64,000 bases of DNA from Haloplanus salinarum (GTDB lineage: Archaea; Halobacteriota; Halobacteria; Halobacteriales; Haloferacaceae). Below, in pieces: positions 13,409-39,946 of the stretch. The stretch's first letter is position 1, and each line of letters starts with the position of its first letter. The notes under the pieces are model-generated. The model was not told the DNA's origin. It worked only from the letters and a program-made list of their open reading frames with translations, and made no database searches. The DNA lies in NCBI RefSeq assembly GCF_024498175.1, contig NZ_CP101823.1:2236987-2300986 (forward strand). The letters run 5' to 3'. Made by a program: the position numbers and the translations under genes.

Positions 13409-13462
13409 AGTGACATGTTTAACAAGACTATTTTAAAAAGAACCGGGGCGGCTCCTGAGTGT

Positions 13463-13519
13463 GTATCTACGGGTCTTGGCGGTACGAAGTTGAGTATTCT
13501 ATTGCTTCTGGGAGGACTT
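13463..13519 (+). repeat. copy 2 of the ~60-nt intergenic element
   Basis: gtgtgtatctacgggtcttggcggtacgaagttgagtattctattgcttctgggaggactt; see copy 1. Confidence 0.5.
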
Positions 13520-13608
13520 CGTTCTCAGCAACTGAGTACGAGTCGGAAAATTGTTGCACCGGAATCCTATAGTCCAACAGTCACCAATAGATATCCAGGC
13601 TATCACAC

Positions 13609-14388: not shown

Positions 14389-14418
14389 TTCACCGATAGC
14401 ATCAATCGAAACTCACTG

Positions 14419-18285: not shown

Positions 18286-18597
18286 TTTTTTGCGTTGTTG
18301 ATCTGCACCGCAGTGACAGTCCGGAGGTCGGTCCTCTTTCGTGCCGGTTCGTGATCTTGCCATCCGGGTGGACAGCGCGACCACTGGTAGGGGTACGGGC
18401 ACTTCTTTATCCAAGTCTGGTATATGTTTTGTGGTATTGTCGTATGTGTCAGACGTTCTCAGAGAAGGGCGAAATCGGGGACGGGACGGCGGTCGGCGCG
18501 GTCGTGATCACCGTTCGTGTTCGACGGACCCGAACCACGAACGGGAGCGCGACGGCGGACCGGACACCATTTATGTCGGGGGAGCGGAGGACGACGT

Positions 18598-23788: not shown

Positions 23789-25714
23789 TCAGTGCAGGTC
23801 GAGCGTCAGCCCGAACTCGTCGAGGTAGAACTGCTCGCCGACGCCCTCGTCCGCCAGGTCGTTGAACGCCTGCTTCACGACGTGGGGGTCGTACCCCGCC
23901 TCGCGGACGTCCGCCAGGGTGACGGAGTCGGCGGTCACGTCGTCGACGTACGTCTCGCGGACGTGGTCGACACACGCGGCCACGCGCTCGGCGGTCACCG
24001 GCGGTTCGAACAGCGCGGCGTTGTCCGCGACCACCGGGTCGGTCTCGTCGTAGTAGAGGGTCCCGTCCTGGAGGTCGACCAGACAGAGGCTCAAGCGCCG
24101 GCTGAACCGGCTGCCGCCGTCGCCGTCGCCGCCGGCGACCTGTCGGCGGGCGCGCTCGGACCATCCCGTCGGCGACGCCACCGCGAGGAGGTAGTGGTAG
24201 CCCTCGCGTTCGGCCTCGTAGACGACGGGGTTGACCACGTCGAGCAGTCGGTCGACGTCGGCCGGCGCGGCGTCGAAGCCGGCGCGGACGTGGGCGTCGA
24301 GGTTGCTGATCACCTGCGCCTCGATCACGAGCGTCGGATCGCGCGAGAGGCCGAGGTACCGCTCGTCGGTGACCTCGTACCGCGCACAGCGGTTGTGCGG
24401 ATACCGTTCCGGGTCCTCGTCGTCGGGGAGGAGGTCGAGCAGGCGGGCCCGGTCCGTGCGCCGCTCGCTGCGGTCCTCCCAGTAGCCGTCGGGGACGTCC
24501 CGCGCCCCGTCGGGCGTGTGGACGACCGACGCCTCGTGCATCGAGATGTCGAACCGGCCGAGGTAGTCCATCTCGAACAGCCGGGCCATCGGGGTCGTCA
24601 CCACGTCGTCGCCGCCCTCGGGGTCGTCGTCGCCGACGGCGGCCTCCAGGTCGGCCCGCCGCTCGTCGAGGCGCTCGCTCTCGGCGGCCAACTGCTCGCG
24701 TTCGCGTTCGAGGCGGCGGACCTCCGCCTCGATGCGCTCGTGCTGGGCGTCGAGGTCCGACAGTTCGTCGTCGAGGATGGCCGAGGCCTCCTCCCGGACG
24801 GCCTCGCGGGCGGCCTCCTTCGTCTCCTCCCGGACGGATTCGAGGCTCGACGCCTGTGCCTCCAGGTCGGCCTTGAGTTCCTTCACCTGCTCGACCTGCG
24901 CGGCGAGCTCGGCCATCGCCTCGCCGCTGCGATCGGTGTATCGCTCGATCCGGGTCTCGGCGCTCGCGTCGGCCGAGGGGTCGAGGAGGGCGGCCTCGAG
25001 TTCGCGGAACTCCCCGCGCAGGTCGCCGTCGATCCGTTCGGAGAGGTCGGCGAGGCCGGACTCCAGTTCCTCACTCACGCGCTCGCGCTCGCGCTCGGCC
25101 TCGCCCACCGCGGTGATCGCTTCCTCGATGGTCTCGACCGTGTGGACGAGTCCCTGGGTCTCGACGTAGACGAAGAAGCCCTGTCGGATCTTCTCCCGGC
25201 GCTCCTCGTAGCGCTCGATCAGTCGCTCCATCACGTCGCGCTGGACGTCCGGATCCTCCAGCAGGTCGTCCAGGTCGCTGAGTTGCGTGGCGGTGTACTC
25301 GGTCACGAGTTCGTACACCTCGCCCTCCATCCGGCGGACGCGGGTGGCGATCTGTTCCTCGGAGAGCGCGTCGAACTGTTTGTACCGCTCGAAATCGACG
25401 ACCGCCTGGAGTTCGGCGTCGACGAAATCGCCCGCCATGGCGGGCGGAACGCCGCCGTCGTCGTAGAAACTCGCCGCCACGAAGAGCCTGGCGAGGCGGA
25501 ACTCGCTGCGGATGCGGTCCTCCTCGGCGCCGGTGAAGAAGTCCGGACACTCCGCGGTGAACTCGAAGACGAAATCCTCCTCGTCGGCCTTGAGTTCGTT
25601 GTACCGCTCGATGCGGGCGCGCTCCGACAGCCGTTCGAGCGCGGCCAAGTCCTCGTTCAGCACGCGATCCTTCGTGTGGGTCAGCTCCCTGTATCGCTCC
25701 TTGCAGTTGCTCAT
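23789..25714 (-). CDS. large acidic coiled-coil hypothetical protein, 641 aa
   Basis: ORF track; central ~200 aa heptad-rich E/R/A/L region; C-terminal globular domain (HYLLAVASPTGWSERA). Confidence 0.6.
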   Translation of the reverse strand: MSNCKERYRELTHTKDRVLNEDLAALERLSERARIERYNELKADEEDFVFEFTAECPDFFTGAEEDRIRSEFRLARLFVAASFYDDGGVPPAMAGDFVDAELQAVVDFERYKQFDALSEEQIATRVRRMEGEVYELVTEYTATQLSDLDDLLEDPDVQRDVMERLIERYEERREKIRQGFFVYVETQGLVHTVETIEEAITAVGEAERERERVSEELESGLADLSERIDGDLRGEFRELEAALLDPSADASAETRIERYTDRSGEAMAELAAQVEQVKELKADLEAQASSLESVREETKEAAREAVREEASAILDDELSDLDAQHERIEAEVRRLEREREQLAAESERLDERRADLEAAVGDDDPEGGDDVVTTPMARLFEMDYLGRFDISMHEASVVHTPDGARDVPDGYWEDRSERRTDRARLLDLLPDDEDPERYPHNRCARYEVTDERYLGLSRDPTLVIEAQVISNLDAHVRAGFDAAPADVDRLLDVVNPVVYEAEREGYHYLLAVASPTGWSERARRQVAGGDGDGGSRFSRRLSLCLVDLQDGTLYYDETDPVVADNAALFEPPVTAERVAACVDHVRETYVDDVTADSVTLADVREAGYDPHVVKQAFNDLADEGVGEQFYLDEFGLTLDLH

Positions 25715-25721: not shown

Positions 25722-26243
25722 TCAACTCCGCTGGCTCGCCGCGTAGTCCGTCAGTTCGGTCTCGAAGAACTCCGCCAGGAACGACGGCGCGTCCGAGTAG
25801 CCCCTGATCCGGAGCCGCACCGTCGTCCCGTCGTCCGCCTCGTCGAGTTCGTAGGCCGCCGTCGCCCGCCCCTTCTTCGTGTACATCTCGTACTCGTTGT
25901 GCGCCGCCGACTGGAGGACCGCCTTCTTCTTCGAGAGCATGTACTCGACGAACGACTCGACGGCGTCCGGCTCCGCGGGCACGGTGCGTTCGACGGTCCG
26001 CGTCGTCGGCGACACCTCCGCGCCGCTCTCCTCCAGCCGGTAGGCTCGAATCCGCTCCTCGGGGACCTTCGAGATGAGCCGCTCGTAGAGGCTGTCGTGG
26101 TCGACGTCGGCGGCGAGTCGAACCACCCCTTCCGGCCGACGCAACTCGCCTTCGGACCAGTTGTTGAAGAGATACTCGACGCGCTTTCGCTCGGCGTCGT
26201 CCGCGTAGTCGACGACGTAGAGGTACGACGGCTCGTCGGTCAT
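25722..26243 (-). CDS. hypothetical protein, 173 aa; upstream partner of the 641-aa protein with 7-nt spacing
   Basis: ORF track. Confidence 0.55.
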   Translation of the reverse strand: MTDEPSYLYVVDYADDAERKRVEYLFNNWSEGELRRPEGVVRLAADVDHDSLYERLISKVPEERIRAYRLEESGAEVSPTTRTVERTVPAEPDAVESFVEYMLSKKKAVLQSAAHNEYEMYTKKGRATAAYELDEADDGTTVRLRIRGYSDAPSFLAEFFETELTDYAASQRS

Positions 26244-26459: not shown

Positions 26460-26765
26460 GTGAACGTCGAGGGAACACGATACATGGCACCTGTGCACTG
26501 GCTGTCCGCCGGCGTACTCGCACTCAACGTCGTCATCGGCGTCGCGCTCGTGTTGGGCGTCTTCATGTTCATGGAGCGTCGCATCCAACTGGGCGCGTTC
26601 GGGGGCCTCTTCGCGGGGGCGGCCGTCATCTACGTCGAGGCGACGATAGGGGAGCAGCTACTCCGAGTTAGTGTCGGCGAGATGAAAATTCTCGTCCTCG
26701 CGGCGGCGTTCGGCGCAGTACTGGGCGTCGTCGGAACGGTCTTGACGGTCAAGCCGGAGCTATGA
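26460..26765 (+). CDS. small membrane protein
   Basis: ORF track; three hydrophobic helices. Confidence 0.4.
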   Translation: MNVEGTRYMAPVHWLSAGVLALNVVIGVALVLGVFMFMERRIQLGAFGGLFAGAAVIYVEATIGEQLLRVSVGEMKILVLAAAFGAVLGVVGTVLTVKPEL

Positions 26766-26837: not shown

Positions 26838-27527
26838 ATGGAAGTTCGAAGCTGGGTCAAAGAGAAGTTCGGCACCACCGATCAGACGCTGTTGAGCACC
26901 GAGGTCTACTCCGACAAGGACCTTCGGCGTGACAAGATCAAGCTGGAGCGCCAGCGCAACCGCATCGAGGGGGAGATCGAGGAGCATCGGACCAAGTACA
27001 AGAAGCTGGTGAAGGAGGCCGCCGGCGAGGACGAAATGCGAAAGCAGGTGCTGGCGAAGAAGGCGAAAAACCAGAAGAAGCAGTACCAGCTCAAACAGAA
27101 GAAGTACCAGAAGACCTCGATGAAGTACGGGACGCTCCTCTCCATCGAGGGGGCCCGGGAGCTACTGGCGGAACAGGGGAGCAACACGAGCCCGGATCTC
27201 GCCATCGACGACGTGATGGACCAGGATCTCCAAGTCGACGAGTTCGAAGCCAAGATGGAGGAGAAGATGGTCGAGTTCGACATGGAGGTCGACATGATGG
27301 ACCGCATCCAGGGGAGCCTGGATTTCAACTTCACCTCCAGCGACATGTCGATGGACTCCGACGACGACGTCATGGGCACCATCGAGGACCTCGAGGAGGA
27401 CCAACTCGACGAGGAGGAGATCGACATCGAGGACGACACCAGCGTCTCGGCCAGCGCCGAGGCGTCGGTCGACGTCCAGGCGGAGGAGATCGACATCGAG
27501 GACGACATGAGCGAACACGGGCTCTGA
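26838..27527 (+). CDS. ESCRT-III/Snf7-like candidate: basic N-terminal helical half, acidic C-terminal half
   Basis: N-terminal K/R-rich predicted helices (residues ~25-95), C-terminal D/E-rich half with duplicated EEIDIEDD motif; immediately upstream of a Vps4-like ATPase. Confidence 0.5.
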   Translation: MEVRSWVKEKFGTTDQTLLSTEVYSDKDLRRDKIKLERQRNRIEGEIEEHRTKYKKLVKEAAGEDEMRKQVLAKKAKNQKKQYQLKQKKYQKTSMKYGTLLSIEGARELLAEQGSNTSPDLAIDDVMDQDLQVDEFEAKMEEKMVEFDMEVDMMDRIQGSLDFNFTSSDMSMDSDDDVMGTIEDLEEDQLDEEEIDIEDDTSVSASAEASVDVQAEEIDIEDDMSEHGL

Positions 27528-27540: not shown

Positions 27541-28707
27541 ATGGACGAGAGCATCCAGCGGGACATCCTCCAGGACCGGTACGAGAAGTACCGCACGAAG
27601 GCGGACGAACTCAGATCACAGGGAGACGCCGAGGAGGCGGCGGCGTACTACGAGCGGTGTGCCGACGCGATGGCGGATCTGGCCGAGACCGAATCCAACG
27701 AGTCGCTGGCCAAGAAACGCCGGAACCTCGCGCAGAACCTCTCGACCGTCGCGGAGAAACTCCGGGAGTCGGGGACCGTCGAGGCGGACGTCGCGGACGG
27801 TCGGGACGGTGTCCCATCCGGCGACCGGGACGCGGCCGCCGACGCCGGGGAACCGACGGCGGACGCGGACCCGGACGCGGACGCGGACGCGGCGGCGGTC
27901 GCGGAGGCCAGCGAATACCTGGAGTCCCCGCCGGATCTCGACTTCGAGGACGTGGGGGGGATGCACGACCTGAAGCGGACGCTCCGGGACAAGGTGATCG
28001 ACCCGCTGGAGCGGTCGGAGCTGTACGCGGAGTACGATCTCGGCGTGGTCAACGGCGTCATGCTGTACGGCCCCCCGGGAACCGGGAAGACGCACATCAC
28101 GCGGGCGCTGGCGGGTAAACTCGGCTACAACTTCGTCGACGTCGAACCCAACGACATCACGAGTTCGCTGGTGGGCGAGGCGGCGGACAACGTCGCCGAA
28201 CTCTACGACGTCGCCCGCGACAACCAGCCCTGCCTGGTCTTCGTCGACGAGGTGGACGCGCTGATGCCGTCCCGCAGCGGCGGGTCACAGAAGACCCAGA
28301 GCGAGCGCCAGATGGTCAACCAGTTCCTCACGGAGTTGACCGAGTGTCGGGGCGAGGACGTCATCACGGTGACGGCGACCAACATCCCCGACGAGGTGGA
28401 CGGCGCGGCGACGAGCCGGTTCCAGGAGCGGATCGAGGTCCCGCCGCCGGACGCCGAGGCCCGCGAGGCCATCCTCCGGGTCCACCTCCGGGACCGGCCG
28501 GCGCTCCCGGACGAGATCGACTGGGATCGGATCCGGCGGCTGAGCGAGGGGTACTCGGGGCGCGACCTGGAGGTCGTCGCCGACGACGCCGCCCGCAGGG
28601 CGCTCCAGGAGGCGGTCGACGCCGACGAGATCCAGCATATCCGTCAGGAGCACGTCGAGACGGCACTCGAGGAGACCGAACCGAGCCTCGACCACTGGGA
28701 CGGCTAG
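27541..28707 (+). CDS. Vps4/katanin-clade AAA+ ATPase with N-terminal MIT-like domain
   Basis: Walker A GPPGTGKT, Walker B LVFVDEVDAL, SRFQERIEVPPPDAEAREAIL matches Vps4 RRFExRIYIPLPD; N-terminal three-helix EEAAAYYERCADAMADL MIT-like region; no PAN-type coiled-coil or HbYX. Confidence 0.8.
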   Translation: MDESIQRDILQDRYEKYRTKADELRSQGDAEEAAAYYERCADAMADLAETESNESLAKKRRNLAQNLSTVAEKLRESGTVEADVADGRDGVPSGDRDAAADAGEPTADADPDADADAAAVAEASEYLESPPDLDFEDVGGMHDLKRTLRDKVIDPLERSELYAEYDLGVVNGVMLYGPPGTGKTHITRALAGKLGYNFVDVEPNDITSSLVGEAADNVAELYDVARDNQPCLVFVDEVDALMPSRSGGSQKTQSERQMVNQFLTELTECRGEDVITVTATNIPDEVDGAATSRFQERIEVPPPDAEAREAILRVHLRDRPALPDEIDWDRIRRLSEGYSGRDLEVVADDAARRALQEAVDADEIQHIRQEHVETALEETEPSLDHWDG

Positions 28708-28776: not shown

Positions 28777-29496
28777 ATGACAGAGAGACGGTGGGACACG
28801 TGGTGGTCGAACTACTTTCTCGCACTGGGCATCCTCTCGGTCGTCGTCGCCGGCTACCTAGGGTGGACGCTGAGCCAACAACCCCGGATGGGGGGGATGG
28901 GGTCGGTGATCGGGGTCGTACTGGCGCTCTTCGGCGTTACCGCCCTGCTGAACGTGGGGATCGGCCTCTGGATCAGGCGGGGGAGCGCGTACGCGTGGTA
29001 CGTGGGAATGGGGCTGCTCGCCCTGTCGGTGCTCGGATCGCTCGGCGGCGGCGGGGAGGCGATGGGCGGTGTCGCGGTTTCGGGGATCGGACTCGTCCTC
29101 GGCTACCTCGCGCGGGACGACCTCCTCGAATCCAAGACGGTGACCGAGGACGCGTCGTCGACCCCGGCCGAGCCGACGGGAGCGGGCGGCGGTCGGGACC
29201 CCGACCGCCGGCCGAACCGCGAGGGGGAGACGGCGCCGCGGGACCGACCCGCCTCGACGGCCGACGACGCGGCGGGGGCACGACGGAACGCGGGCTCGGC
29301 GTCCGGATCCCCCGAGCCGGCGGCAGAGACAGGAGCGGAGGCGGGGACGGCCCAGTCGATGGACGCGGAACGACCATCCTCGGCAGCGTCGCCGGAGTCC
29401 GGCAGCGAGGACGGGACGAAGTTCTGCCCGTACTGTGGCGAGGAGATTCCGGACCGGGCGGACCACTGTCCGTACTGTTCGTCGTCGATCCCGTAA
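28777..29496 (+). CDS. membrane protein with disordered linker and C-terminal double zinc ribbon
   Basis: TM helices in the first 120 aa; KFCPYCGEEIPDRADHCPYCSSSIP. Confidence 0.6.
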   Translation: MTERRWDTWWSNYFLALGILSVVVAGYLGWTLSQQPRMGGMGSVIGVVLALFGVTALLNVGIGLWIRRGSAYAWYVGMGLLALSVLGSLGGGGEAMGGVAVSGIGLVLGYLARDDLLESKTVTEDASSTPAEPTGAGGGRDPDRRPNREGETAPRDRPASTADDAAGARRNAGSASGSPEPAAETGAEAGTAQSMDAERPSSAASPESGSEDGTKFCPYCGEEIPDRADHCPYCSSSIP

Positions 29497-29965
29497 CCCG
29501 GGGCGACCGGACGCCCAACTCCGTCGAAATCCACCGGGGCAGCCCGCAACAGCCGCCCCGTGTGTTCGCGCTAGCGATGTGATTCGATCCTGATGATCGG
29601 GGTCCCGCTCCTGTCGGCACTGATCGTGGTTGTCGTCGAATCGGCCTCGAACCGGAGGGTGATTGAGATTGTGTTCTTGGAAGAGTCGGTCGAGCGCGTC
29701 AGTGTCGATGTCCTCGTTGATGAGCCACTTGAGGATATCCTCGTCGTGGGCCTTCGCAACCGCCGTGACGACGGCCGTGCTCAGCTCTTCGTCCGCGTCC
29801 GGCTCGTAGTAGAGATCCGCCGTGTCGTCCATACGTGCAATTCGGCACTCGACACCAAACCCGTCGGTACCAGTATATGCTGGCGTAGTGACCCGTCGGG
29901 TGGAGAACGGTGTCGACTGCAGTGGGTTTCGGCGGAGCGCGACTCCACGGAGGGTTACGGCCGCC

Positions 29966-30850
29966 TCAGAGGTCGGCGCCGCAACTGATACACGTGTTCC
30001 ACTCGGGGTCGACCTCCTCGCCGCAGTGTGTACAGAAACGGGTCGCGTCGGGCGACCCGCCACCCCCGTCGCCGGCCGCCGATCCGCCCCCCTGGGAGTG
30101 CGATTGCCGGTCGGTCCGGGCCGGCTCCCCGGCCCGTCGGTCGGCGGTCCCCTGACGGCGTTCCCGCTGGGCACGATCGCCCTGCGGCTGTGATCGGCCG
30201 CCCTGGCCCTGTGGCGGCCGGTCGGCCGCGGCTCGCTCGCCGCCGGCCCGACCGCCGTCGGCGCCGGCCTCGGGTTCGGCGGAGGCGGTGATGTCCGACC
30301 GGTTGACGACGCTGTCCTCGACCTGCGTGCGCTGATCCTTGACGGTCTTGCTCTGGTCGACGCGGGTCGTGCTCTGGTCGATGGTGTCGACGTTGGTGGT
30401 GCTTTGATCGACGTGAGTCTGCTGGTTCTTCCGGTCGACCATGTCGCCCTGCACGTTCGTCACCTGGTCGGGCCCCTTCTCGACTTCCTTTTTTGTTTCG
30501 AGGTACTCCTTGCCGGCCTTGGCGACGGTTTCCTTGGCCGCCTGTCGTTTCTTCTTCGCCATGATCGTGTAGTCGTACAGCCCGAGCAACATGACGACGA
30601 GGATGGCGAACGCGGAGGCGCCCAGCGCCGACCCGCTGAGGTTCCCGACCGCCAGCGCCAACCCGACGAGCAGGAGGATGATCGCCCCGATCCGCAGGAA
30701 GCCACTGAACTTCGAGAGGTTGTCCGGCGCGTCGATGTCCGGATGGTCCCCCGCGACCGCCGCCCCGTACAGTACGACCGACAGTGTTTGCGCGACTACC
30801 ATACTGCCAGCCTGCGAATCGACCGACTTTAATCTTGGCCCGAGCGACAT
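29966..30850 (-). CDS. membrane protein with STT-VD repeat module and C-terminal zinc ribbon (start uncertain)
   Basis: two TM helices; VDQSTTNVDTIDQSTTRVDQSKTVKDQRTQVEDSVVNRSD; FCTHCGEEVDPEWNTCISCGADL; ORF 29966..30967 trimmed to MSLGPRL. Confidence 0.55.
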   Translation of the reverse strand: MSLGPRLKSVDSQAGSMVVAQTLSVVLYGAAVAGDHPDIDAPDNLSKFSGFLRIGAIILLLVGLALAVGNLSGSALGASAFAILVVMLLGLYDYTIMAKKKRQAAKETVAKAGKEYLETKKEVEKGPDQVTNVQGDMVDRKNQQTHVDQSTTNVDTIDQSTTRVDQSKTVKDQRTQVEDSVVNRSDITASAEPEAGADGGRAGGERAAADRPPQGQGGRSQPQGDRAQRERRQGTADRRAGEPARTDRQSHSQGGGSAAGDGGGGSPDATRFCTHCGEEVDPEWNTCISCGADL

Positions 30851-31064
30851 GTTCGAATACAGGGAGGTATCGTCGACACCGTCGGCGCCCGGACCCCGAC
30901 CGGGCTTTCGTCGGGTGGCTGTCGGTGAGAGGCGACCGGACGGGACGGGCACGGGCGGACGGGGCAACCTTTATTCCCATCCTCGTATCATGTTTTCCGA
31001 TAACGAGGTTCTCGGGGCGTCCCCGGTGGGGGTGGGCGCGGCCGTGAGCCACGGGAGACAACCA

Positions 31065-32903
31065 ATGCCTTCGACATGCCCGAACTGCGACGGACGTGTG
31101 CCATCGGACGGCGACTTCTGTCCGAACTGCGGGGAGTCGCTGTCGACGAACTGTCCCGGCTGTGGGGAGTCGCTACCGATCGACGCCCAGTTCTGTGCCA
31201 ACTGCGGCCAGGACCTCACCAGCTCCACCGGCCAGCGGGGATCGGGGAACGCCGCGGGAGGCGGCAGTTGGCGACTGGGCGACGACGAGTTCGCCAAGCG
31301 CGTCGACGGCGCCGCCCTCGACGGCGACGGACTGCTCGCCACGCTCAGCCGGCGAAAGGACGTCGAAATCGAGGCCGGTAATCGGGCGCTCCTGCTCGAG
31401 AACGGGAAGCTCGTCGAGACGCTCGAGGCCGGCAAACACAAGCTCGACAGCCTCGGCAAGCGGATCCGAGAGCTCAGATCCAGCCACAACCTCACAGTCG
31501 TACTGGTCCAGGAGGGGCGGACCACCGTCGCCCGCTCGTTCGACGACATCCGGACGGCCAGCGACTACCTCGTCGACGTCACGGTCGAACTCGACGTGGG
31601 GATGCACGACCCACAGACGTTCTTCCGTTCGATGATGGCCGACCGGGACGTGCTGACGACCGGCACGTTCAACCAGTTGCTCGGGCGGGCGATCCGGAAC
31701 GCCCTGGAGGCGACCATCTCGGAGTACGACCACCAGGAACTCTACGGGAGCAAGGAGGTCAAGCGTCGCGTCGCTCGCGAAATCGAGGAGCAGTGTCGCT
31801 CGGTCCTCGAGAGCAACGGGCTCGAACTCGTCGAACTGGTCTCCTTCGACTACGACGACGACCGGGGCGAGATCCGTCAGGGCCGCAAGGACGTCGACAT
31901 CCGCGAGGAGAAAGAGGAGATCAAGGACCGCGAGAGCGAGCTGGACCGGCGGGGGCGCGAACGGCAGACCGAGGACAAGGTCCACGGGGAGAAACAGCGC
32001 GTCCGGAAGGAGTCCGCCGAGATGAGTGCCGACCACACGCTCGACAAACAGGAGGTCGAGCAACAGCAGGAGATCGACGACAAACGGCGCCGGCACGGCC
32101 ACAAGGCCGAACGGGAGGACGTCGAACACGAGGAGGACGTGCGGACCTACCGGACCGAATCCGAGGTCGAGCGCGAGGACATCCGCCACGAGCAGGAGAT
32201 GAAAGAGCGGGAGCAGGAACACGAACAGGACGTCTCCGAAATCGAGGATCTGGTCGACCTCAAGCGGAAGAAAGACGAGCAGAAACTCGACAAGCAGGAG
32301 CGCAAACAGGAGATGGAGATGCAGAAAGAGAGCCACGAGGTGGACGTCGAGAAGGAGCGCCTCGAGGCTCGCGACGACGTGGACGCCCAGACCCTCGCCA
32401 GCATGGAGGATACGGACGAGGAGATGATCGACCTGGCGAAGATGGACAAGGCGGAGAACCTGAACGCCGACCAGCTCGACTCGCTGGGCGCCCAGAAGAG
32501 CGACGAACTGGCGAAGGCCCGTCAGGAGGCAAACAGCGCCGAGAAGGAGCGCGAACGGGTCGAGGACCAGAAGCAGTTCCGCGAGGAGATGCAGGACATG
32601 ATGGAGGGATCGATGGATCGCATGGAGCGAACCACCGACAAGGCGATGGACAGCATGGGCGGCGCGGCGGAGGCGGCCGCCGAGGACACCTCGGACAACG
32701 TCATCGTCAGCGGCGAGGGCGGCGACTCGTCGGGCGGGGACACGACCATCGTCCAGGGCGGTCCCGGCGGGGGTGGCGACGGCACCACCGCCGAATCCGA
32801 CGGCGGAGCCGACGAGCCCGAGAAGATCATCGTCTGTCCGAGCTGTGGCTCCGAGGAACCGTACGCCAACGACTTCTGTATGGGGTGTGGACAGGAGTTC
32901 TGA
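31065..32903 (+). CDS. SPFH/band-7 (flotillin-like) protein flanked by N-terminal tandem zinc ribbons and a C-terminal zinc ribbon, with a long EA-rich coiled coil
   Basis: CPNCDGRV...FCPNCGESL..CPGCGESL...FCANCGQDL; SPFH-like core (KDVEIEAGNRALLLENGKLVETLEAGKHKLD...VVLVQEGRTTVARSFDDIRTASDYLVDVTVELDV...); C-terminus CPSCGSEEPYANDFCMGCGQEF. Confidence 0.7.
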   Translation: MPSTCPNCDGRVPSDGDFCPNCGESLSTNCPGCGESLPIDAQFCANCGQDLTSSTGQRGSGNAAGGGSWRLGDDEFAKRVDGAALDGDGLLATLSRRKDVEIEAGNRALLLENGKLVETLEAGKHKLDSLGKRIRELRSSHNLTVVLVQEGRTTVARSFDDIRTASDYLVDVTVELDVGMHDPQTFFRSMMADRDVLTTGTFNQLLGRAIRNALEATISEYDHQELYGSKEVKRRVAREIEEQCRSVLESNGLELVELVSFDYDDDRGEIRQGRKDVDIREEKEEIKDRESELDRRGRERQTEDKVHGEKQRVRKESAEMSADHTLDKQEVEQQQEIDDKRRRHGHKAEREDVEHEEDVRTYRTESEVEREDIRHEQEMKEREQEHEQDVSEIEDLVDLKRKKDEQKLDKQERKQEMEMQKESHEVDVEKERLEARDDVDAQTLASMEDTDEEMIDLAKMDKAENLNADQLDSLGAQKSDELAKARQEANSAEKERERVEDQKQFREEMQDMMEGSMDRMERTTDKAMDSMGGAAEAAAEDTSDNVIVSGEGGDSSGGDTTIVQGGPGGGGDGTTAESDGGADEPEKIIVCPSCGSEEPYANDFCMGCGQEF

Positions 32904-33220: not shown

Positions 33221-35521
33221 TCACTCCCCGTCGTACAGGTCCGCGAGCGCGTCGCGCAGGTAGACGATGTCGTCGTAGCGGTCGGCCTTTTCCTTCGCCA
33301 GCGCCGTCAGTACCACGTCGTCGAGCGCGGCGGGGACGTCGGCCACCTCGCTGGGCGGCCTCGGTCGGTCGTCCAGTACCGCGCGCACGACTCTCGTGCG
33401 CTCGCCCTCGAACGGCGGCCGGCCGGTGAACAGCTCGTAGAACACCGCCCCCAGCTGGTAGACGTCGGTGAGGTCGTCGACCGACCCGTAGGACTCGTCG
33501 AACTGCTCCGGCGCGGCGTAGTGGGGCGACACCCCCTCGACGCTCGCCGAGTGATCGAGCAGGTGTTTCGACAGCCCCCAGTCGGCCACCTTCGGGACGT
33601 CCCAGGCCCCGTCGACGGACCGAAAGAGGACGTTCTCGGGTTTCAGATCGAGGTGGGCGACGCCGCGTCGGTGGGCGTGGCGCACGCCCTTCGTCACCGC
33701 GAGGGCCGTCCACAGCGACTGCTGGACGTCCATCGTCCCCGCCCGGTCGCCGAGGTGGCCGCCGTCCATGTACTCCATGGCGATCCACGGGAGGGGTTCG
33801 GCCCCGTAGTCGACGACGCCGACCACGTGGTCGTGGTCGTCGAGTTTGTCCCACGTTTCGGCCTCGGCCAGCATCCGCTCGACGGTGTCGGTGTGGAGCG
33901 TCCCCGAGAGGCGTGGCTTCTTGACGGCCAGCGTGACGGTGCCGTCCGGGGTCGGTGCCGTCGCCCGGACGACGTCGGCGTTCCCGCCGCTTCCGATGAT
34001 GCCCGCCTCCGTGAGCGCGTCGTACGCGACCGAGACGTCGGGTGCGCGCGGGATCTCCGTGGGCGGTCCCCCCGGCGGTCGGTTCCCGGTCGACGGCCCG
34101 TCCGCCGGCCGTTCGACGGGGTCGTCGCCGGGGGCCGGCGCGTCGGCCGCGGTGCCGAGCGAGACGTCCGCGAACCCATCGGTCGCCTCGTCGGGCGTCA
34201 CCGGGGTCGATCCCGCGTCGGGTGACGGTCCGGAGTCGGCGTCGGCCACGTCGCTCCGTTCGGATCGTGGCGACGGTGTGGACCCGGAGTCGTCCGCGGT
34301 ATCGGAGTGTCGGGACGGGGACGCGGAGCGACCGCGGCGCGGCGACGCGGGGCCGGGACCGTCGAACGCGGACGTCGTCCCGTCCGATCCGCCGGACCCG
34401 TCGCCGGAGCGGCGCAGCCACCACCAGCCACCGCCCAGTCCGGCGGCGAGCAGGCCCGCGGCCGGCAGGACGACCCCGCCGTCGCCGCCCGCCGCGTCGT
34501 TTTCGGGGTCGCCCCCGTCCGACGAGTCGCCACCCGCCGGGGCCGCCGTGGACGTCGCGGTGGGGGTCGGCGTCGCGGTGGGCGTCGGGGTCGTGGGCTC
34601 GCCGGCGACCGCAAGCAGGAAGTCGTCGGCCGCCGTCACGTAGACGGTCCCGTCGGCCACCGCCGGGGAGGACGTGATGTCGTTCGAGTGGCCGTCGTAC
34701 GCCCACAGCCGGTCGCCCGTCTCGGCGTCGAACCCGTACAGCGTGTCGCCATCCGCGAGGTAGACCGCGCCGTCGGCCACGGCTGGCGAGGAGCGCCGGT
34801 CGCCGGGGTCGGCCGACCATCGCTCCTGGCCCGACGCCGCGTCCAATGCGTACAACGCCGTCCCGGCCGCGAAAACGGTCCCGTCGGCTACCGCCGGCGA
34901 TGCGAACCCCCAAGCGTCGTCGGCGTCGGCCGTGAACCGCCACCGCTCGGAGCCGTCGTCGGCCGACAGCGCGTAGACGGCCCCGTCGGTGCTGCCGACG
35001 TAGACGGTGCCGTCGACGACTGCCGGCGAGGAACGCACCTCCCCGTCAGTCTCGAACGTCCACGCCGGCCGTCCCGAGTCGGTCGGGAGAGCGTAGACGC
35101 TCCCGTCGTTGCTCCCGACGTAGACGGTGCCGTCGACGACCGCCGGCGAGGAGAAGACCTTCCCGCCCGTCCGGTACCGCCACCGTTCGGACCCGTCGGC
35201 GACGGGGAGTGCACGGACGTAGCGGTCGTTGCTCCCGACGTAGACGGTTCCGTCGACCACCGCGGGCGACGACGTCGGGCGGTTGTCGTCGGCAAACACC
35301 TGGCCGCTCGGGCCCGCCGAGGCCCACGTTCGGTCGACGTCGGCGACCGGCCCGGAGACGGCCGGCGCGTGTCCGGTGTTCGCGGCGTCGCGGTGGTGTT
35401 GGGGCCACGACTCCTCCGAATCGGACTGGGCCGCCGCGAGTCCGGTCGCCCCGTCGACGGCCGAGTATCCGGCCGCGGCGCCCGCGGCCGCCCGCAGGAA
35501 CTCCCGTCTCCTCGGCGCCAT
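33221..35521 (-). CDS. transmembrane receptor Ser/Thr protein kinase with extracellular PQQ-repeat beta-propeller
   Basis: Tat-like RRREFLRAAAGAAAG signal; repeated AVVDGTVYVGSNDGSVYAL PQQ blades; Pro/Thr linker; one TM; C-terminal Hanks kinase motifs HLDLKPENVL, VADWGLSK, YAAPEQ. Confidence 0.8.
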   Translation of the reverse strand: MAPRRREFLRAAAGAAAGYSAVDGATGLAAAQSDSEESWPQHHRDAANTGHAPAVSGPVADVDRTWASAGPSGQVFADDNRPTSSPAVVDGTVYVGSNDRYVRALPVADGSERWRYRTGGKVFSSPAVVDGTVYVGSNDGSVYALPTDSGRPAWTFETDGEVRSSPAVVDGTVYVGSTDGAVYALSADDGSERWRFTADADDAWGFASPAVADGTVFAAGTALYALDAASGQERWSADPGDRRSSPAVADGAVYLADGDTLYGFDAETGDRLWAYDGHSNDITSSPAVADGTVYVTAADDFLLAVAGEPTTPTPTATPTPTATSTAAPAGGDSSDGGDPENDAAGGDGGVVLPAAGLLAAGLGGGWWWLRRSGDGSGGSDGTTSAFDGPGPASPRRGRSASPSRHSDTADDSGSTPSPRSERSDVADADSGPSPDAGSTPVTPDEATDGFADVSLGTAADAPAPGDDPVERPADGPSTGNRPPGGPPTEIPRAPDVSVAYDALTEAGIIGSGGNADVVRATAPTPDGTVTLAVKKPRLSGTLHTDTVERMLAEAETWDKLDDHDHVVGVVDYGAEPLPWIAMEYMDGGHLGDRAGTMDVQQSLWTALAVTKGVRHAHRRGVAHLDLKPENVLFRSVDGAWDVPKVADWGLSKHLLDHSASVEGVSPHYAAPEQFDESYGSVDDLTDVYQLGAVFYELFTGRPPFEGERTRVVRAVLDDRPRPPSEVADVPAALDDVVLTALAKEKADRYDDIVYLRDALADLYDGE

Positions 35522-35666
35522 ACGGTACGAACGTGCTCTAGGACCCTCATAACGGTTTTCCCGCGGTGTGACGGAGTCGATCGTCCGAACGGGGTGGACG
35601 GGGTCGAGGGCCGACCCCCCCGGGCCGGCCCCAGATTTATGTATCGGGTGGAATATCTCGGATCGT

Positions 35667-37220
35667 ATGAGTTGTCAGGCACCGGGGATGCTCGGGGACG
35701 ACGGTCCGGTCGACGATCGGGTCGCCAGGACCGAAGTGTTGGCTCGGGCGTTCGCCGACGCGGCAGGGGAGTTTTTCGAACGGCGGAAACAGTACGAGGA
35801 CGCCATCGAGGAGGCCGAATCCGAGAAAGATCGGATGAAAATGATCGGAATCGGAGGAGTCGGCGTCGGGGTCCTCCTCCTCGTGGTCGGCGTCGCCGGC
35901 GGGAACGGGGCGTCGCTTCCGCTGATCGGGATCGGACTGCTGGTCGCCGCTGCGGGCGGCGCGTACGCGTACACACAGTACCAGGCGGCCGAGGAACGGA
36001 TCGAGGAGAACCGCCGGAACCTCCGGGAGAACGAACCCGACGGGGAGGTGTCGTTCGTCTCGCAGGTGACGGTCCCGTTCTATCTGGTCCCGTACCAGGA
36101 GCGGTTCATGATCTTCGACGGCCTCGATCAGGCCCCCGAAACGCGACTGGAGCTCGCGAACATCGACGGCGACGCACTGACGAGCGAGGCCGAGCGGTAC
36201 GGGGAGATGATCGACACCTTCGAGGAGACGCTCGGCGGTGAGTCGGTCGTCTCGCCGGAGTTCGCCGAGCAGTTCGCGCCGGACGTGGCGGAACACGGAC
36301 GGCTCGAACGGCCGTTGCTCGATCGGATCGACGCGATGACCGACGTCGCGTCGTCCGTCTCCCACGACGTGGTCGACGTGAACGTCCACGCGAACGACGC
36401 GAAAAGCGAGAGCATCCGGACCTTCGCCGAGCGCGGGGCGTTCCGGGAGGGGAGCGACCTGCCGAGCGTGCCGACCCGGCGGTCGGCGGCCGAGAGCGAG
36501 GCGGCGGTCGACGAGATCCGCGGCGTCGAACAGGAGGCAGTGAGCGGCGACCTGCTCTCGCAGGCCCGCGAACAGCGGACGTTCGTCAACGAGACGGCGA
36601 CCGAGTTCGCCGAGCGACTCCAGACGAACGAGGAGGCGGTGAACGACCACTACGGCGCCTACGCCGAGTCGGCGGAGACGGCCGTCCACCGCCACGTCTG
36701 TGCGGAGTGTCTCGCGGAACGCATCGAGGACATCGACGGTCGCCTCGATCTGGTGTCCGAGATCCTCAGTTCGGAGACGGGGAGCCTGGGTGCGGCGCTG
36801 AGCGACCGCGACCTCGACGAGGGGTACGACGGCAAGTTCACCGAGAAGATCCGCAACGACATCCAGCGGGAGATTCCCGAACTCTCGGAGACGCTCAAGC
36901 GGGCGTACAACACCCTGCCGGAGCTGGGCGCCGGCGGCGGACACTGTGAGGTCCACGGCGAGGTGCAGACGACGCCGGTCCCCGACGGCGGCGCCATCTT
37001 CGGCGAAACCTGGCGGAGCCTCTACTACGCGTTCCGCGAACCGATCATGGAGAGCGCCGACGACCTCGAACGCGACGCCGAGGAGGTCAGACAGAACAAA
37101 GAGCAGAAGATGATCGACATGACACAGTACGAACAGATCAAGGAGCGGGCCGAGCGCGACTACCACCAGGTCAGGTCGGATTACGAGGCCGCGAAGACGG
37201 TCCAACGGAGGCTCCGCTAA
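35667..37220 (+). CDS. membrane-anchored coiled-coil protein, first gene of a six-gene operon
   Basis: TM segment IGIGGVGVGVLLLVVGVAG...LIGIGLLVAAAGGAY; TATA-like tttatg ~27 nt upstream of ATG 35667. Confidence 0.6.
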   Translation: MSCQAPGMLGDDGPVDDRVARTEVLARAFADAAGEFFERRKQYEDAIEEAESEKDRMKMIGIGGVGVGVLLLVVGVAGGNGASLPLIGIGLLVAAAGGAYAYTQYQAAEERIEENRRNLRENEPDGEVSFVSQVTVPFYLVPYQERFMIFDGLDQAPETRLELANIDGDALTSEAERYGEMIDTFEETLGGESVVSPEFAEQFAPDVAEHGRLERPLLDRIDAMTDVASSVSHDVVDVNVHANDAKSESIRTFAERGAFREGSDLPSVPTRRSAAESEAAVDEIRGVEQEAVSGDLLSQAREQRTFVNETATEFAERLQTNEEAVNDHYGAYAESAETAVHRHVCAECLAERIEDIDGRLDLVSEILSSETGSLGAALSDRDLDEGYDGKFTEKIRNDIQREIPELSETLKRAYNTLPELGAGGGHCEVHGEVQTTPVPDGGAIFGETWRSLYYAFREPIMESADDLERDAEEVRQNKEQKMIDMTQYEQIKERAERDYHQVRSDYEAAKTVQRRLR

Positions 37221-38209
37221 TGGCCGAGCGCGACAGGGTTCGGATCACGAATCCGGGCGACGTCGGGGACGCCGCGGCCAGGGGCATCAAGAGTCAGATC
37301 TCCAAGCTCAACAGTTCGATCGAACAGACAAACCGGGAGATTCAGAACCTCGAGAAGCGCATCGGGGAACTGGAGCAGAGTTTCGCGCGGATCGAACAGA
37401 CGAAGGCAGCGGCCCGGGCGGAGGCGATGGAGGACCTGGTCGACGATCTCAAAGAACAGGTCGACGAGAAGCGCGCGGAGTTCCAGCGGCGCCGACGCGA
37501 CGTGCTGGAGGATTACCGCGACAGCATCCGGCGGCTGAAGGACCGGTTCGTCGGGACCATCTCCGGCAACCGCGAGCAGTTCGATCAGGTGGAGTCTGAA
37601 CTCGCCGATATCGAGGAGCGTCGAGGGGAGACGGCGGCGGCCGCGGGCCGGTTGAGCGACGGGGCAGCCCGGGAGTACGATCGGCGTCTCGACGCGGTGA
37701 TCGAGAGCCGGAACGGCTTCCTGTCGGCGATCAACGACTTCCTCGACGACCGCGAGACGACGGCGGAGACCATCGACTCGCTCCAGACGCCGCTGCCCGG
37801 CGTCTCGGGAGTGACGACCGTCGAGGTGCCGTTCTGGGTGGTCGGCATCGAGCGCGACGGCCGGGAGGAGGTCCGGGTGTTGCCGGTACTGGCACGCGGG
37901 AGCGGCGACGCGTCGGCGACGCGCGCCCAGCCGTACGTGAACTACCTCCGGGAGCATCCGACCCACAGCTACGGCGACATGGCCGACGCGGTGTCGGAGT
38001 ACGTCCGGCGAGACGAGGTCCGGGACCGGCTGGCCAAACAGGACGGCGAGTTCGCCGACCCGGACGTCCTCCGGCGGCGCGACGAGACGCTCGATCGGTT
38101 CGTCGACGCGCTGGCGGAGTACCAGCTGGACGGAGACGACCGATCCGGGGAGGCGTCCGGGAGGGCGACCGACGCGGCGGAGCAAACGGAGGTGGCGGCG
38201 GATGACTGA
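37220..38209 (+). CDS. coiled-coil protein (operon gene 2)
   Basis: start ATG overlaps stop TAA of gene 1; N-terminal heptad-rich region. Confidence 0.6.
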   Translation: MAERDRVRITNPGDVGDAAARGIKSQISKLNSSIEQTNREIQNLEKRIGELEQSFARIEQTKAAARAEAMEDLVDDLKEQVDEKRAEFQRRRRDVLEDYRDSIRRLKDRFVGTISGNREQFDQVESELADIEERRGETAAAAGRLSDGAAREYDRRLDAVIESRNGFLSAINDFLDDRETTAETIDSLQTPLPGVSGVTTVEVPFWVVGIERDGREEVRVLPVLARGSGDASATRAQPYVNYLREHPTHSYGDMADAVSEYVRRDEVRDRLAKQDGEFADPDVLRRRDETLDRFVDALAEYQLDGDDRSGEASGRATDAAEQTEVAADD

Positions 38210-39353
38210 GGAGGCGAAGGGCGCGATCACCTCGGAGAAGATCGAGACGGATAACACGAACTTCGCGACGGTCAGAGCCGACCAGACCTGCGAGGAGGTG
38301 CTCGTCCCGCGGGAGAACGCGTACCGACAGCTCAACTGGCAGATCACCTTCGAGAAGGGCTCGGTCTACAAGCCACAGGAGGACGTGGGCATCTACGCCG
38401 ACGAGGTCGACTGCAAGTACGGCGTCCAGATCCGGGGGGACGTGTTCGGCCGGAGCGCGGTCGGGCTCGAACACGGCGGCGCGGCCCACTCCGGCGCCGA
38501 CCGTGCGGACGGGGAGACGCCGGTCGTCGGTGCGCGGGTCATCGGGTCGGTGCTCTCGGATGGACAGGTCGACATCACGGAACCCGCGTCGCGGATGGAC
38601 GACTGGGAGCCACGCCCGGTCCGGGTGTACGGCGACGTGGTCGGCGATCACGTGACGGTCGAGGCGCCGACGGTCGTCTACGGGACGGTGAGCGCCGAGA
38701 CGACCCTGCGGGCGAACGCCCCGCTGGTCGTGGTCGGCGACGTGCGCTCGGAGGGGATCATCGAGGCGTCGGACCTGTTCGCGTTCTCGGTGAGCGCTCG
38801 GGACGACGTGACCCTCGGCCACAACGTCGCGGTGATCAACCCGGAGCTCCGCTCGGACGAGGGGAGCCTGACCATCGCGGACCGGGTGGGCGTCCTCACC
38901 CCCGACCTCCTGGAGCGGATTCACGAGGGGAACGACGTCGACGCGGTCGGGCCGTGGGTGTTCGACGTCGACGCCGTCTGGGAGGGGTCGGTCCTGGTGC
39001 CCCCCGACGTCTCGGATCACGGGCAGGGCCAGGTCACCAGCCGCGCCTGGCGGACCGTCGAGGAACCGACGGAGTCGCGGTCGAAGGCGCGCCGGCTCTT
39101 CGAGTCGATGATCGAGCGGACGCGCAAACGGCCGCCGGACTTAGAGGAGTTCCGGTACGCCGGCGTCGGGTCGGCCGCCGGCGGGACGGAGATCACCGTC
39201 GAGGGCGACATGGTCGTCGGGGAACAGGAGAAACGCGTCGACGAGAGCACGACCGCGGTCGACCGGAGCACGGAGGTCCACGACGAGAGCACGACCGTCG
39301 AGGACAGCGTCGTCAACCGGTCTGACCTGAGCGACGGCGACGGGGAGGACTGA
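38202..39353 (+). CDS. bactofilin-like beta-helix protein with C-terminal STT-VD repeat tail (operon gene 3)
   Basis: recurrent VxGDV motifs (GVQIRGDVFG, GARVIGSVLSDGQVDI, VRVYGDVVGDHVTV, LVVVGDVRSEGIIE) with ~17-18 aa period; tail VVGEQEKRVDESTTAVDRSTEVHDESTTVEDSVVNRSD; 8-nt overlap with gene 2. Confidence 0.5.
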   Translation: MTEEAKGAITSEKIETDNTNFATVRADQTCEEVLVPRENAYRQLNWQITFEKGSVYKPQEDVGIYADEVDCKYGVQIRGDVFGRSAVGLEHGGAAHSGADRADGETPVVGARVIGSVLSDGQVDITEPASRMDDWEPRPVRVYGDVVGDHVTVEAPTVVYGTVSAETTLRANAPLVVVGDVRSEGIIEASDLFAFSVSARDDVTLGHNVAVINPELRSDEGSLTIADRVGVLTPDLLERIHEGNDVDAVGPWVFDVDAVWEGSVLVPPDVSDHGQGQVTSRAWRTVEEPTESRSKARRLFESMIERTRKRPPDLEEFRYAGVGSAAGGTEITVEGDMVVGEQEKRVDESTTAVDRSTEVHDESTTVEDSVVNRSDLSDGDGED

Positions 39354-39355: not shown

Positions 39356-39946
39356 GTGCCCTACTGTGATCGACACAACGAGGTGTACAGCGGCCCGGAA
39401 TGTCCGGCCTGCGCGGACGAGGGCGGGGACACGGCACCCGCCGAGGACGGGCCGGGCGCGGGCGGGGACGCCGGCGCGGCCGGGGGCATCGACGACCTGG
39501 TCGACGAGGCCGTCTCGGCCGCGACGGACGCCGTCGACGACGCGGACGACGTGGTCGTCGGGGAGCAGTCGAAACGCGTCGACAGGAGCACAACCGTCGT
39601 CGACGACAGCACCGAGGTCCACGACCGGAGCACGACCGTCTCGGACAGCGTCGTCAGCGACTCGGAGATCGACGCCGGCGACGGCGCCGGCGAGGGGACG
39701 ACCGTCGTCGACGACAGCGTCGTCAGCGACTCCACGGTCGGCGGCGGGGGGGAGACCGAAGTCGAGGACAGCGTCCTCGACGACGCGACCGTCGGGGACG
39801 AACACGTCGAGTCGGCGGTCGGCGACGTCGGCGGTGGGTCGGACCCCGATCCGGCGACCGACGACGACGCGGCGTTCTGCATCTACTGTGGCACCGAGAT
39901 TCCGGCGACCGCGGGGTTCTGTCCGGCCTGCGGGGAGGAACAGTGA
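39356..39946 (+). CDS. double-zinc-ribbon protein with STT-VD repeat module (operon gene 4)
   Basis: N-terminus CDRHNEVYSGPECPAC; VVVGEQSKRVDRSTTVVDDSTEVHDRSTTVSDSVVSDS; C-terminus FCIYCGTEIPATAGFCPACGEEQ; 2-nt gap after gene 3. Confidence 0.6.
   Translation: MPYCDRHNEVYSGPECPACADEGGDTAPAEDGPGAGGDAGAAGGIDDLVDEAVSAATDAVDDADDVVVGEQSKRVDRSTTVVDDSTEVHDRSTTVSDSVVSDSEIDAGDGAGEGTTVVDDSVVSDSTVGGGGETEVEDSVLDDATVGDEHVESAVGDVGGGSDPDPATDDDAAFCIYCGTEIPATAGFCPACGEEQ

Follow-up and report, generated by a model that had tools for sequence, protein, structure and literature searches.

Which genes does an SPFH (band-7) protein work with when zinc ribbons stand where its membrane anchor would be expected? The question is raised by a 64,000-nucleotide stretch of the Haloplanus salinarum genome (assembly GCF_024498175.1, contig NZ_CP101823.1, positions 2,236,987 to 2,300,986), referred to here as the window. 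Four of its genes, termed A, B, C and D, encode zinc-ribbon proteins, and the product of gene C (31065-32903, plus strand; 612 residues) carries an SPFH domain and long charged helices between tandem ribbons at the N-terminus and a single ribbon at the C-terminus. A first-pass annotation of this DNA suggested that the repeated ribbon could be a shared interaction handle of the four products in a membrane-microdomain complex. Gene C is a conserved component of a haloarchaeal ESCRT-like gene cluster. Its conserved partners include an ESCRT-III-like protein, an AAA ATPase, an arCOG09748 homolog and an arCOG08177 homolog, and the gene is therefore read as part of ESCRT-like membrane remodelling and no longer as a member of a microdomain complex. 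On balance, the gene C product would be a soluble SPFH scaffold that takes part in membrane remodelling together with an ESCRT-III-like polymer and the ATPase acting on it.

The reading frame of gene C has been given differently in public annotations, which place the start earlier and yield 722 residues for H. salinarum (NCBI) and 770 residues for H. rallus. All 43 aligned orthologs share an M-x-x-CPxCG start, and this motif lies at 31065. Since the orthologs begin there, the 612-residue reading is right and the 722- and 770-residue annotations are over-extended; the surplus in the window (30591-31064) overlaps the 5′ region of B on the opposite strand. A word-indexed search returned 44 homologs. 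All are haloarchaeal, with identities of 45-100%, and they have 581-656 residues, except for one of 507 and the over-extended NCBI entry of 722. The gene C product is 100% identical to an NCBI protein of H. salinarum, and several neighbouring products match proteins of H. salinarum or H. rallus exactly.

The tandem ribbons of gene C (residues 5-22 and 30-47; 31077-31205, plus strand) are matched by Pfam DZR with 52 bits over residues 5-48, and the C-terminal ribbon spans residues 591-608 (32835-32888, plus strand). In the alignment of the 43 orthologs (46-85% identity) each of the twelve cysteines of the ribbons is either invariant or at least 90% conserved, that is, positions 5, 8, 19, 22, 30, 33, 44 and 47 at the N-terminus and the strictly invariant C591, C594, C605 and C608 at the other end, so that the cysteine pairs of the first-pass annotation are borne out across the orthologs. 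The Pfam family Zn_Ribbon_1 reaches its cutoff in gene C; DUF7577 on residues 589-611 stays below its own (19.8 against 28 bits). No transmembrane-like segment was found in gene C, the maximum 19-residue Kyte-Doolittle mean being 0.54, and the product is a soluble protein without an N-terminal membrane anchor.

Between the ribbons, residues 268-539 (31866-32681, plus strand) form a region rich in E, R, K, D and H in which helices are predicted at 268-347, 366-437 and 480-539. A coiled coil of about 300 residues had been proposed here; the long charged helices are present, at a length of about 270 residues. This region too is largely well conserved among the 43 orthologs. It contains an unusually large number of invariant or near-invariant histidines (H307, H324, H344, H346, H355 and H386) among the conserved E, R and D residues, and metal or pH sensing by these residues is conceivable. 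The helices are followed by a beta-type segment, AAAEDTSDNVIVS…GDTTIVQGG (residues 540-566; 32682-32762, plus strand), within a block of columns 537-566 that is at least 90% conserved. Its motif recurs in a Nanohalobium protein (P0093), and V/I/G-rich equivalents stand upstream of the C-terminal ribbon in remote SPFH-ribbon relatives.

The SPFH domain (residues 99-264; 31359-31856, plus strand) is recognised by Pfam Band_7 with 26 bits on residues 101-257 (cutoff 23.6), and PF01145 is precomputed for about two-thirds of the gene C orthologs. PF13421 (Band_7_1) has no match on gene C at E<=0.1. Against PDB sequences, phmmer with gene C gave nothing useful and a profile of the SPFH domain found stomatin weakly (E 0.29), so that a fold search was required. 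An AlphaFold2 monomer model, built from an ortholog alignment of shallow diversity, shows an alpha/beta domain at about residues 99-264 with strands alternating with helices and a predicted local distance difference test (pLDDT) score of 80-90, scores in this range also being given over residues 140-330; it renders the ribbons as small beta hairpins and the beta-type segment at low confidence. In a Foldseek search of this model against the PDB the top 44 matches are all SPFH proteins, with a best E of 9.1e-9 at probability 1.00. They comprise prohibitin, HflK/C, flotillin, stomatin, erlin, QmcA and the major vault protein, and the alignments to flotillin run over 400 columns. The SPFH assignment is thus secure, and the domain proposed at first pass holds in profile and fold searches alike.

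Gene C shares with the classical SPFH proteins (HflK/C, prohibitin, flotillin, stomatin and erlin; E 1e-8 to 1e-6) the SPFH fold and a long helix behind it. The classical proteins are anchored by an N-terminal transmembrane helix, a hairpin or a lipidation, whereas gene C has tandem zinc ribbons and no hydrophobic segment. Such an anchor is usual in the classical members but is not found in every SPFH protein, YdjI of B. subtilis being one without it. By analogy, its long helices would make up the wall and roof of an SPFH assembly, and the protein would assemble into a ring or cage on the membrane. In SPFH cages of solved structure the cap is closed by strands from the C-terminus.

The genomic partners of gene C were compared by tblastn of the window proteins against eight loci, seven usable ones from a scan of species-representative genomes and that of Halapricum desulfuricans, found by exact look-up. 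They belong to Haloplanus litoreus (L001), Salinarchaeum, Halosimplex, Halorhabdus (L004), Salarchaeum (L006), Halapricum (L010) and two Haloarculaceae metagenome-assembled genomes (MAGs), one of them L005; the others are referred to by number (L002, L003 and L007). Gene C, the ESCRT-III-like gene and the AAA gene lie mutually within 10 kb in all eight, with the gene order rearranged. The arCOG09748 homolog joins them in six of the eight loci and the arCOG08177 homolog in five. A tightly packed block of accessory genes, g35568–g37220–g38202–D–g40017, is complete in five loci and partial in Halapricum; Halorhabdus showed only a D-like gene, and in L005 none of the block's genes was found within 10 kb of gene C. 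Genes for Ser/Thr kinases lie in the window and in L002, L004 and L010. Housekeeping genes (phosphoglycerate mutase, RimK-like and succinate dehydrogenase) stand on the flanks of the cluster, whose synteny is kept between Haloplanus species.

Euryarchaeal ESCRT systems of the 'Main' and 'Halo_FHA' types have been described that combine Vps4 (arCOG01307), ESCRT-III (arCOG07402), arCOG09748, arCOG08177 and membrane Ser/Thr kinases, the Halo_FHA type adding the FHA protein arCOG13166 (PMC10936438). In that work arCOG09748 is an ESCRT-system protein with a C-terminal winged helix, and arCOG08177 consists of inactivated Cas2 and TBP-like domains (PMC10936438). The Halo_FHA locus on plasmid pHmuk01 of H. 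mukohataei served as the reference with which the window proteins were compared. The product of g23789 (23789-25714, minus strand; 641 residues) is 31% identical over 685 aa to WP_012807456 of that species (E 4e-72), whose arCOG assignment is given in Table S2 of PMC10936438, and is thus the arCOG09748 homolog. That of g25722 (25722-26243, minus strand; 173 residues) is the arCOG08177 homolog, 41% identical over 170 aa to a WP_012807457-type protein of H. mukohataei (E 6e-34), and its N-terminal motif agrees with Fig. S3 of PMC10936438.

The ESCRT-III-like protein (26838-27527, plus strand; 229 residues) is encoded 13 nt upstream of the ATPase gene. Its family profile (A3) aligns with arCOG07402 proteins in hhalign at 95% probability (E 3.9e-8, 131 columns), and AlphaFold2 predicts a hairpin architecture. 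The ATPase (27541-28707, plus strand; 388 residues) has a single AAA domain (Pfam AAA, 114 bits) behind an MIT-like three-helix N-terminus and is 31% identical, from residue 7 onwards, to the 'Vps4' (arCOG01307) of H. mukohataei (E 2.8e-32). Its N-terminal profile retrieved 2w2u (E 0.002), 2v6y (E 0.009) and CdvC/Vps4 4lcb (E 0.16) among generic TPR matches; the first two are presumably Sulfolobus Vps4 MIT domains, the tool label reading only 'p60 katanin'. Vps4_C does not match the ATPase. Its designation as Vps4-like is supported by architecture and context. The acidic tail of one locus protein repeats an EE(I/V)DIE motif that is conserved in all orthologs; it is a candidate ATPase-docking (MIM-like) element, though unlike canonical MIM1 or MIM2.

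Upstream of the gene for the ESCRT-III-like protein, g26460 (26460-26765, plus strand) encodes a small membrane protein with transmembrane-like segments that is conserved in L001-L004, L007 and L010. Downstream of gene C lies the gene of a receptor-type Ser/Thr kinase with an N-terminal PQQ beta-propeller (33221-35521, minus strand; Pfam PQQ_2 131 bits, Pkinase 107 bits). No FHA domain is found in the window, and H. mukohataei arCOG13166 has no tblastn match there at E<=1e-3, although genes in L010, L004, L007 and L002 are matched by it. An arCOG13166 protein of Haloplanus salinarum is listed in PMC10936438, and its gene presumably lies outside the window.

The accessory block begins with g35568 (35568-37220, plus strand), which encodes a protein with two transmembrane segments at residues 89-135 and a large cytoplasmic domain, and which has orthologs in L001, L002, L003, L006, L007 and L010. 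The alignment with these starts at about residue 24-34 and M34 never varies, so that the true start is probably near 35667 and the listed one at 35568 is too early. The coiled-coil protein g37220 (37220-38209, plus strand; 329 residues) has orthologs in five loci, always between g35568 and g38202, and its profile matches are of the coiled-coil type only. Its Joint Genome Institute (JGI) name, 'predicted nucleic acid-binding Zn-ribbon protein', was rejected as a coiled-coil artefact, there being no cysteine motif. The beta-rich protein g38202 (38202-39353, plus strand; 383 residues) is strongly conserved, and the best conserved of the block, with 72% mean column identity and long invariant runs in six orthologs; it has no Pfam, NCBIfam or PADLOC match. 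Bactofilin was considered for it and set aside, since Pfam gives no match and a weak Bactofilin match occurs only in a non-homologous 261-residue Halapricum protein at the same position. The last gene, g40017 (40017-40811, plus strand; 264 residues), encodes a helical-repeat protein and is overlapped by a longer out-of-frame open reading frame, which hides it from simple ORF filters. Its product is 37% identical (E 9e-36) to that of the Halapricum gene directly downstream of the SPFH gene, and a homolog lies directly upstream of gene C in Salarchaeum.

Several proteins of the cluster have in common a module, GDVVxGxQxKxV…DxSTTxV…EDSVVNRSD, for which Pfam holds no entry. It occurs in B (30286-30390), at the C-terminal end of g38202 (39206-39330), in the middle of D (39548-39790) and in the FHA-ribbon protein of Halapricum (L010:13050-13180). 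The FHA-ribbon proteins of L010, L004, L007 and L002 have an FHA-like N-terminus and C-terminal halves like D, with STT/DSVVNRS repeats and ribbons. The DNVIVS…DTTIVQGG segment that precedes the last ribbon of gene C looks related to this module. The STT…DSVVNRSD module is a candidate for the shared interaction handle at least as good as the ribbons, and together with the related segment of gene C it may be the actual element of co-assembly.

Part of this picture has precedents. The Meth_adaptin type of archaeal ESCRT system has a component with SPFH, coiled-coil and Zn-ribbon parts that was proposed to act with ESCRT-III, and its authors relate this SPFH protein to YdjI and PspA of B. subtilis (PMC10936438). 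Compared by description, the Meth_adaptin protein WP_013898576.1 of Methanosalsum zhilinae resembles gene C in having an SPFH domain, a coiled coil and a ribbon and in being encoded beside Vps4-like and ESCRT-III genes. Its SPFH domain is listed at residues 1-212 and thus leaves no room for N-terminal tandem ribbons, unlike gene C, and its locus contains adaptin-appendage, GOLD and ProX proteins where the window has arCOG09748 and arCOG08177 homologs, kinases and the g35568–g40017 block. With the Main and Halo_FHA systems the window shares the arCOG09748, arCOG08177, ATPase and ESCRT-III-like homologs and the membrane kinase. The reference Halo_FHA locus on pHmuk01 has no SPFH gene, whereas the window has no FHA match; the orthologous loci of Halapricum and Halorhabdus amylolytica do have FHA proteins, and both species are listed for arCOG13166 (PMC10936438).

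The bacterial YdjI (SamI), an SPFH protein of the cytosol, carries a zinc finger close to its C-terminus, needs the membrane proteins YdjG/H, recruits PspA and is required for PspA foci (PMC8581546; bioRxiv 10.64898/2026.02.06.704340). YdjI, encoded in pspA-ydjGHI (samGHI), and gene C both lack a transmembrane anchor, have a zinc finger on the C-terminal side and adjoin genes for membrane proteins and a gene of the ESCRT-III superfamily; the likeness is a working analogy and not one of homology. YdjI is of the Band_7_1 (PF13421) type and has neither N-terminal ribbons nor a 270-residue helical region, whereas gene C has both and no PF13421 match. PspA works without a dedicated AAA ATPase. An SPFH, coiled-coil and ribbon protein in an archaeal ESCRT locus is thus already published. 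New are the form found in haloarchaea, which has tandem ribbons at the N-terminus, the linkage of this form to a cluster of the Main/Halo_FHA type, the five-gene accessory block and the shared STT/DSVVNRSD module. In the available text of PMC10936438 SPFH is mentioned for Meth_adaptin only, and neither the haloarchaeal SPFH component nor the g35568–g40017 block is described there.

The combination of ribbons and SPFH is far broader than these loci. An SPFH-region profile (A2) run against 1.84 billion cluster representatives retrieved 899 at E<=1e-3, of which 534 reach E<=1e-10. Ribbons were counted on the best 150 of the 899, 148 of them newly retrieved. Ribbons at both ends, taken as four or more CxxC within the N-terminal 110 residues plus two CxxC within the C-terminal 60, are present in 49 of the 148, and many further members have ribbons at a single end. 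The first-pass annotation had regarded zinc ribbons at both ends of a flotillin-like protein as unusual; by these counts they are the hallmark of a large unnamed family and not a rarity. This anchor-less family amounts to hundreds of clusters at 50% identity that are annotated only as 'zinc-ribbon domain-containing protein'. The remote SPFH-ribbon proteins have 450-800 residues and are not acidic, and most are therefore not from halophiles. Among ten remote members Pfam finds Band_7 in nine (up to 72 bits), DZR in eight and Band_7_1 weakly in two (P0095, 27.5 bits; P0134, 23.8 bits); remote homologs linked at E 4e-44 score 72 bits on Band_7. A search with a mixed alignment that included remote members returned the same 44 haloarchaeal proteins. 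One relative lacks ribbons and belongs to a Nanohalobium MAG. The haloarchaeal SPFH protein also has a copy of 49% identity on a contig of 2.4 kb that was assigned to 'uncultured Salinivenus sp.', a genus of bacteria (L008:15-1637); this contig is most likely mis-binned, and gene transfer is possible.

Remote gene contexts were read from seven contigs with non-halophile relatives and one Nanohalobium contig. L014 is a metagenome contig whose composition is not that of a halophile. Beside its DZR-SPFH gene it encodes a Snf7-like protein (Pfam Snf7, 23.9 bits), a 390-residue AAA ATPase that has an MIT-like start and weak Vps4_C, and a second ESCRT-III-like protein. Further neighbours are a CHAT protease and a fusion of kinase and FGE-sulfatase, both of bacterial style; these features lie at L014:2030-4563 and 8001-10043. 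In hhalign the window ESCRT-III-like family has no similarity to the Snf7-positive 205-residue protein of L014 and aligns with the 210-residue one at only 65% probability. If L014 is bacterial, it would carry an unusual pair of the Snf7/Vps4 type outside archaea. The other six non-halophile contigs carry kinases, FHA, CHAT/caspase and FGE-sulfatase proteins, PQQ/WD40 propellers and further ribbon proteins. The ESCRT link is thus consistent within haloarchaea and recurs once elsewhere; the commoner theme in the family as a whole is phosphorylation-linked signalling together with ribbon proteins.

From the domain composition, fold, cysteine conservation and gene linkage observed here a mechanism can be proposed. 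Like other SPFH proteins, gene C would form an oligomer, ring- or cup-shaped, at the cytoplasmic side of the membrane. Its ribbons, at the position of the classical anchor, would dock onto the membrane partners g26460 and g35568, and in Haloplanus also onto A and B. The assembly would mark a patch for the ESCRT-III-like protein to polymerise, the AAA ATPase would remodel or recycle the polymer, and Ser/Thr kinases may control the process through phosphorylation. Such a logic would parallel the one demonstrated in B. subtilis, in which SamG/SamH act on SamI (YdjI) and SamI on PspA.

Several findings weigh against a role of gene C in ESCRT-like remodelling. The tie between gene C and the ESCRT-III-like gene is one of gene neighbourhood. 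Pfam Snf7 does not match the ESCRT-III-like protein, PDB sequence and fold searches with it returned nothing significant, and its designation depends on the profile match to arCOG07402 proteins that were themselves assigned by remote homology. On the ATPase the Pfam MIT match is sub-threshold (9.5 bits). The best score of the AAA core is to CDC48 D2, and the core is closer to that domain than to the published haloarchaeal Vps4. No ESCRT-like genes are visible on the six non-halophile contigs other than L014, and the Nanohalobium relative is without ribbons and has no ESCRT-III-like neighbour on record. The ESCRT link may be clade-specific or secondary to a signalling role.

It is possible, if unlikely, that signalling is the primary role and that the SPFH-ribbon protein is a membrane-proximal platform of phosphorylation-controlled stress, conflict or defence signalling with Ser/Thr kinases, FHA readers and, in bacteria, caspase-like proteases, the ESCRT-like genes of haloarchaea being one of several interchangeable output modules. 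Non-halophile relatives adjoin Pkinase (L012, L013, L014 and L019), FHA (L012 and L013), CHAT/Peptidase_C14 (L012, L014 and L018) and FGE-sulfatase genes (L012-L014) and PQQ/WD40 propellers (L016 and L018), the window itself has the PQQ-propeller kinase, the orthologous loci have FHA-ribbon proteins, and a low-GC island with a restriction-modification fusion is located some 4 kb from the cluster. However, no effector-type protease or nuclease is found in the haloarchaeal loci, the flanks are housekeeping genes, the cluster keeps its synteny between species of Haloplanus, and the locus proteins match no defence family beyond generic AAA and coiled-coil ones.

A known defence system had also been considered for the locus and was rejected, the PADLOC matches of its proteins being to generic AAA (IetA, TRIP13) and coiled-coil types only. 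The island occupies window positions 1-19000, where the guanine-cytosine (GC) fraction is 0.49-0.63 compared with 0.67-0.73 elsewhere. It carries a 1422-residue restriction-methylase fusion of the MmeI/Eco57I type (5600-9868) and DUF6166, SWIM, DUF6884 and PRiA4_ORF3 proteins, and was probably acquired horizontally, as a unit distinct from the ESCRT-like cluster.

The microdomain complex proposed at first pass turns on the remaining ribbon proteins. A (28777-29496, plus strand; 239 residues) is a membrane protein identical to NCBI WP_257627624.1, a 'zinc-ribbon domain-containing protein', and ends in FCPYCGEEIPDRADHCPYC, with its ribbon at 29425-29478. B (29966-30850, minus strand; 294 residues) is a membrane protein that carries the STT/DSVVNRSD module and ends in FCTHCGEEVDPEWNTCISCG, with its ribbon at 29981-30034. 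D (39356-39946, plus strand; 196 residues) is soluble and has an N-terminal CxxH…CxxC knuckle of the form C-x2-H-x8-C-x2-C (39365-39412), STT/DSVV repeats and a C-terminal ribbon, CIYCGTEIPATAGFCPAC (39878-39931). C4, H7, C16 and C19 and C175, C178, C189 and C192 of D are invariant in six orthologs, and orthologs occur in L001, L002, L003, L006 and L007. Zn_Ribbon_1 reaches its cutoff in B and D, and A falls just short (24.2 against 25 bits).

All four reading frames and their ribbons are confirmed at the positions first given, and A, B, C and D are the only ones among the 48 window proteins (17,103 residues, 0.67% cysteine) with the pattern C..[CH].{5,20}C..C, which 500 shuffles of each protein never once produced. 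The clustering of the four is beyond chance. Two parts of the original description need correction. The ribbons had been called double, which holds for the tandem pair at the N-terminus of gene C; A and B have one CxxC-x10-11-CxxC ribbon each, at the C-terminus, and D one at each end. Hydrophobic or transmembrane segments are present in A and B, and in neither C nor D (maximum 19-residue Kyte-Doolittle means of 0.54 and 1.04), so that only the first two are membrane proteins.

That A-D form a self-contained microdomain complex held together by zinc ribbons and independent of the ESCRT-like machinery is decidedly unlikely. The four cluster far beyond chance, A and B could anchor the soluble gene C product, and other ribbon proteins accompany the SPFH-ribbon family on further contigs (three on L012, a small DZR protein on L016 and a 637-residue DZR protein on L019) and in L010. 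Yet A and B are specific to Haloplanus: in tblastn over the eight loci each has a full-length match only in H. litoreus (68% identity for B), and in other genera unrelated small proteins, a small coiled-coil protein or a g40017 homolog, stand in their place. The partners kept across genera are instead the ESCRT-III-like/AAA pair, the arCOG09748 and arCOG08177 homologs and the g35568–g40017 block, and an interaction of ribbon with ribbon is unsupported by any test in this analysis. With A and B confined to Haloplanus and C and D not membrane proteins, the four-member complex is not supported. Between A and B lies a small open reading frame (29571-29832, minus strand) that begins MDDTADLYYEPDADEELSTAVVTAVAKAHDEDILKWLINEDIDTDALDRLFQEH, changes frame near 29671-29675 and continues NTISITLRFEADSTTTTISADRSGTPIIRIESHR; it is presumably a gene for a HalOD1-type halobacterial domain with a frameshift, and no counterpart is found between A and B in H. 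litoreus.

The idea that the ribbons are nucleic-acid-binding or structural caps, and gene C an ordinary SPFH protease regulator or raft protein in a meaningless neighbourhood, draws on the generic character of ribbons of this Pfam type, which are common in haloarchaeal proteins, and on the JGI name of g37220, but it is very improbable given that g37220 has no cysteine motif, that no NfeD or FtsH-type protease partner occurs among the genes scanned and that the linkage is kept across eight rearranged loci.

A role of gene C as a soluble SPFH scaffold in ESCRT-like remodelling bears on a process that is poorly understood in prokaryotes, the membrane targeting of ESCRT-III-type polymers, for which the sole worked example with an SPFH protein is the SamI–PspA pair of B. 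subtilis. A wider proposal, quite doubtful at present, would give the SPFH-ribbon family the ancestral task of joining a soluble ring of SPFH proteins with polymers of the ESCRT-III type and with a Vps4-like ATPase, controlled by Ser/Thr kinases and FHA proteins. The coupling would reach beyond archaea, as on L014, and STT…DSVVNRSD strands would plug accessory proteins into the SPFH cap. The SPFH/ESCRT-III pairing is kept in at least eight haloarchaeal genera or MAGs, together with a dedicated AAA ATPase and defined accessory genes. It supports the published suggestion of an ancient link between SPFH proteins and ESCRT-III and gives a concrete, testable set of genes.

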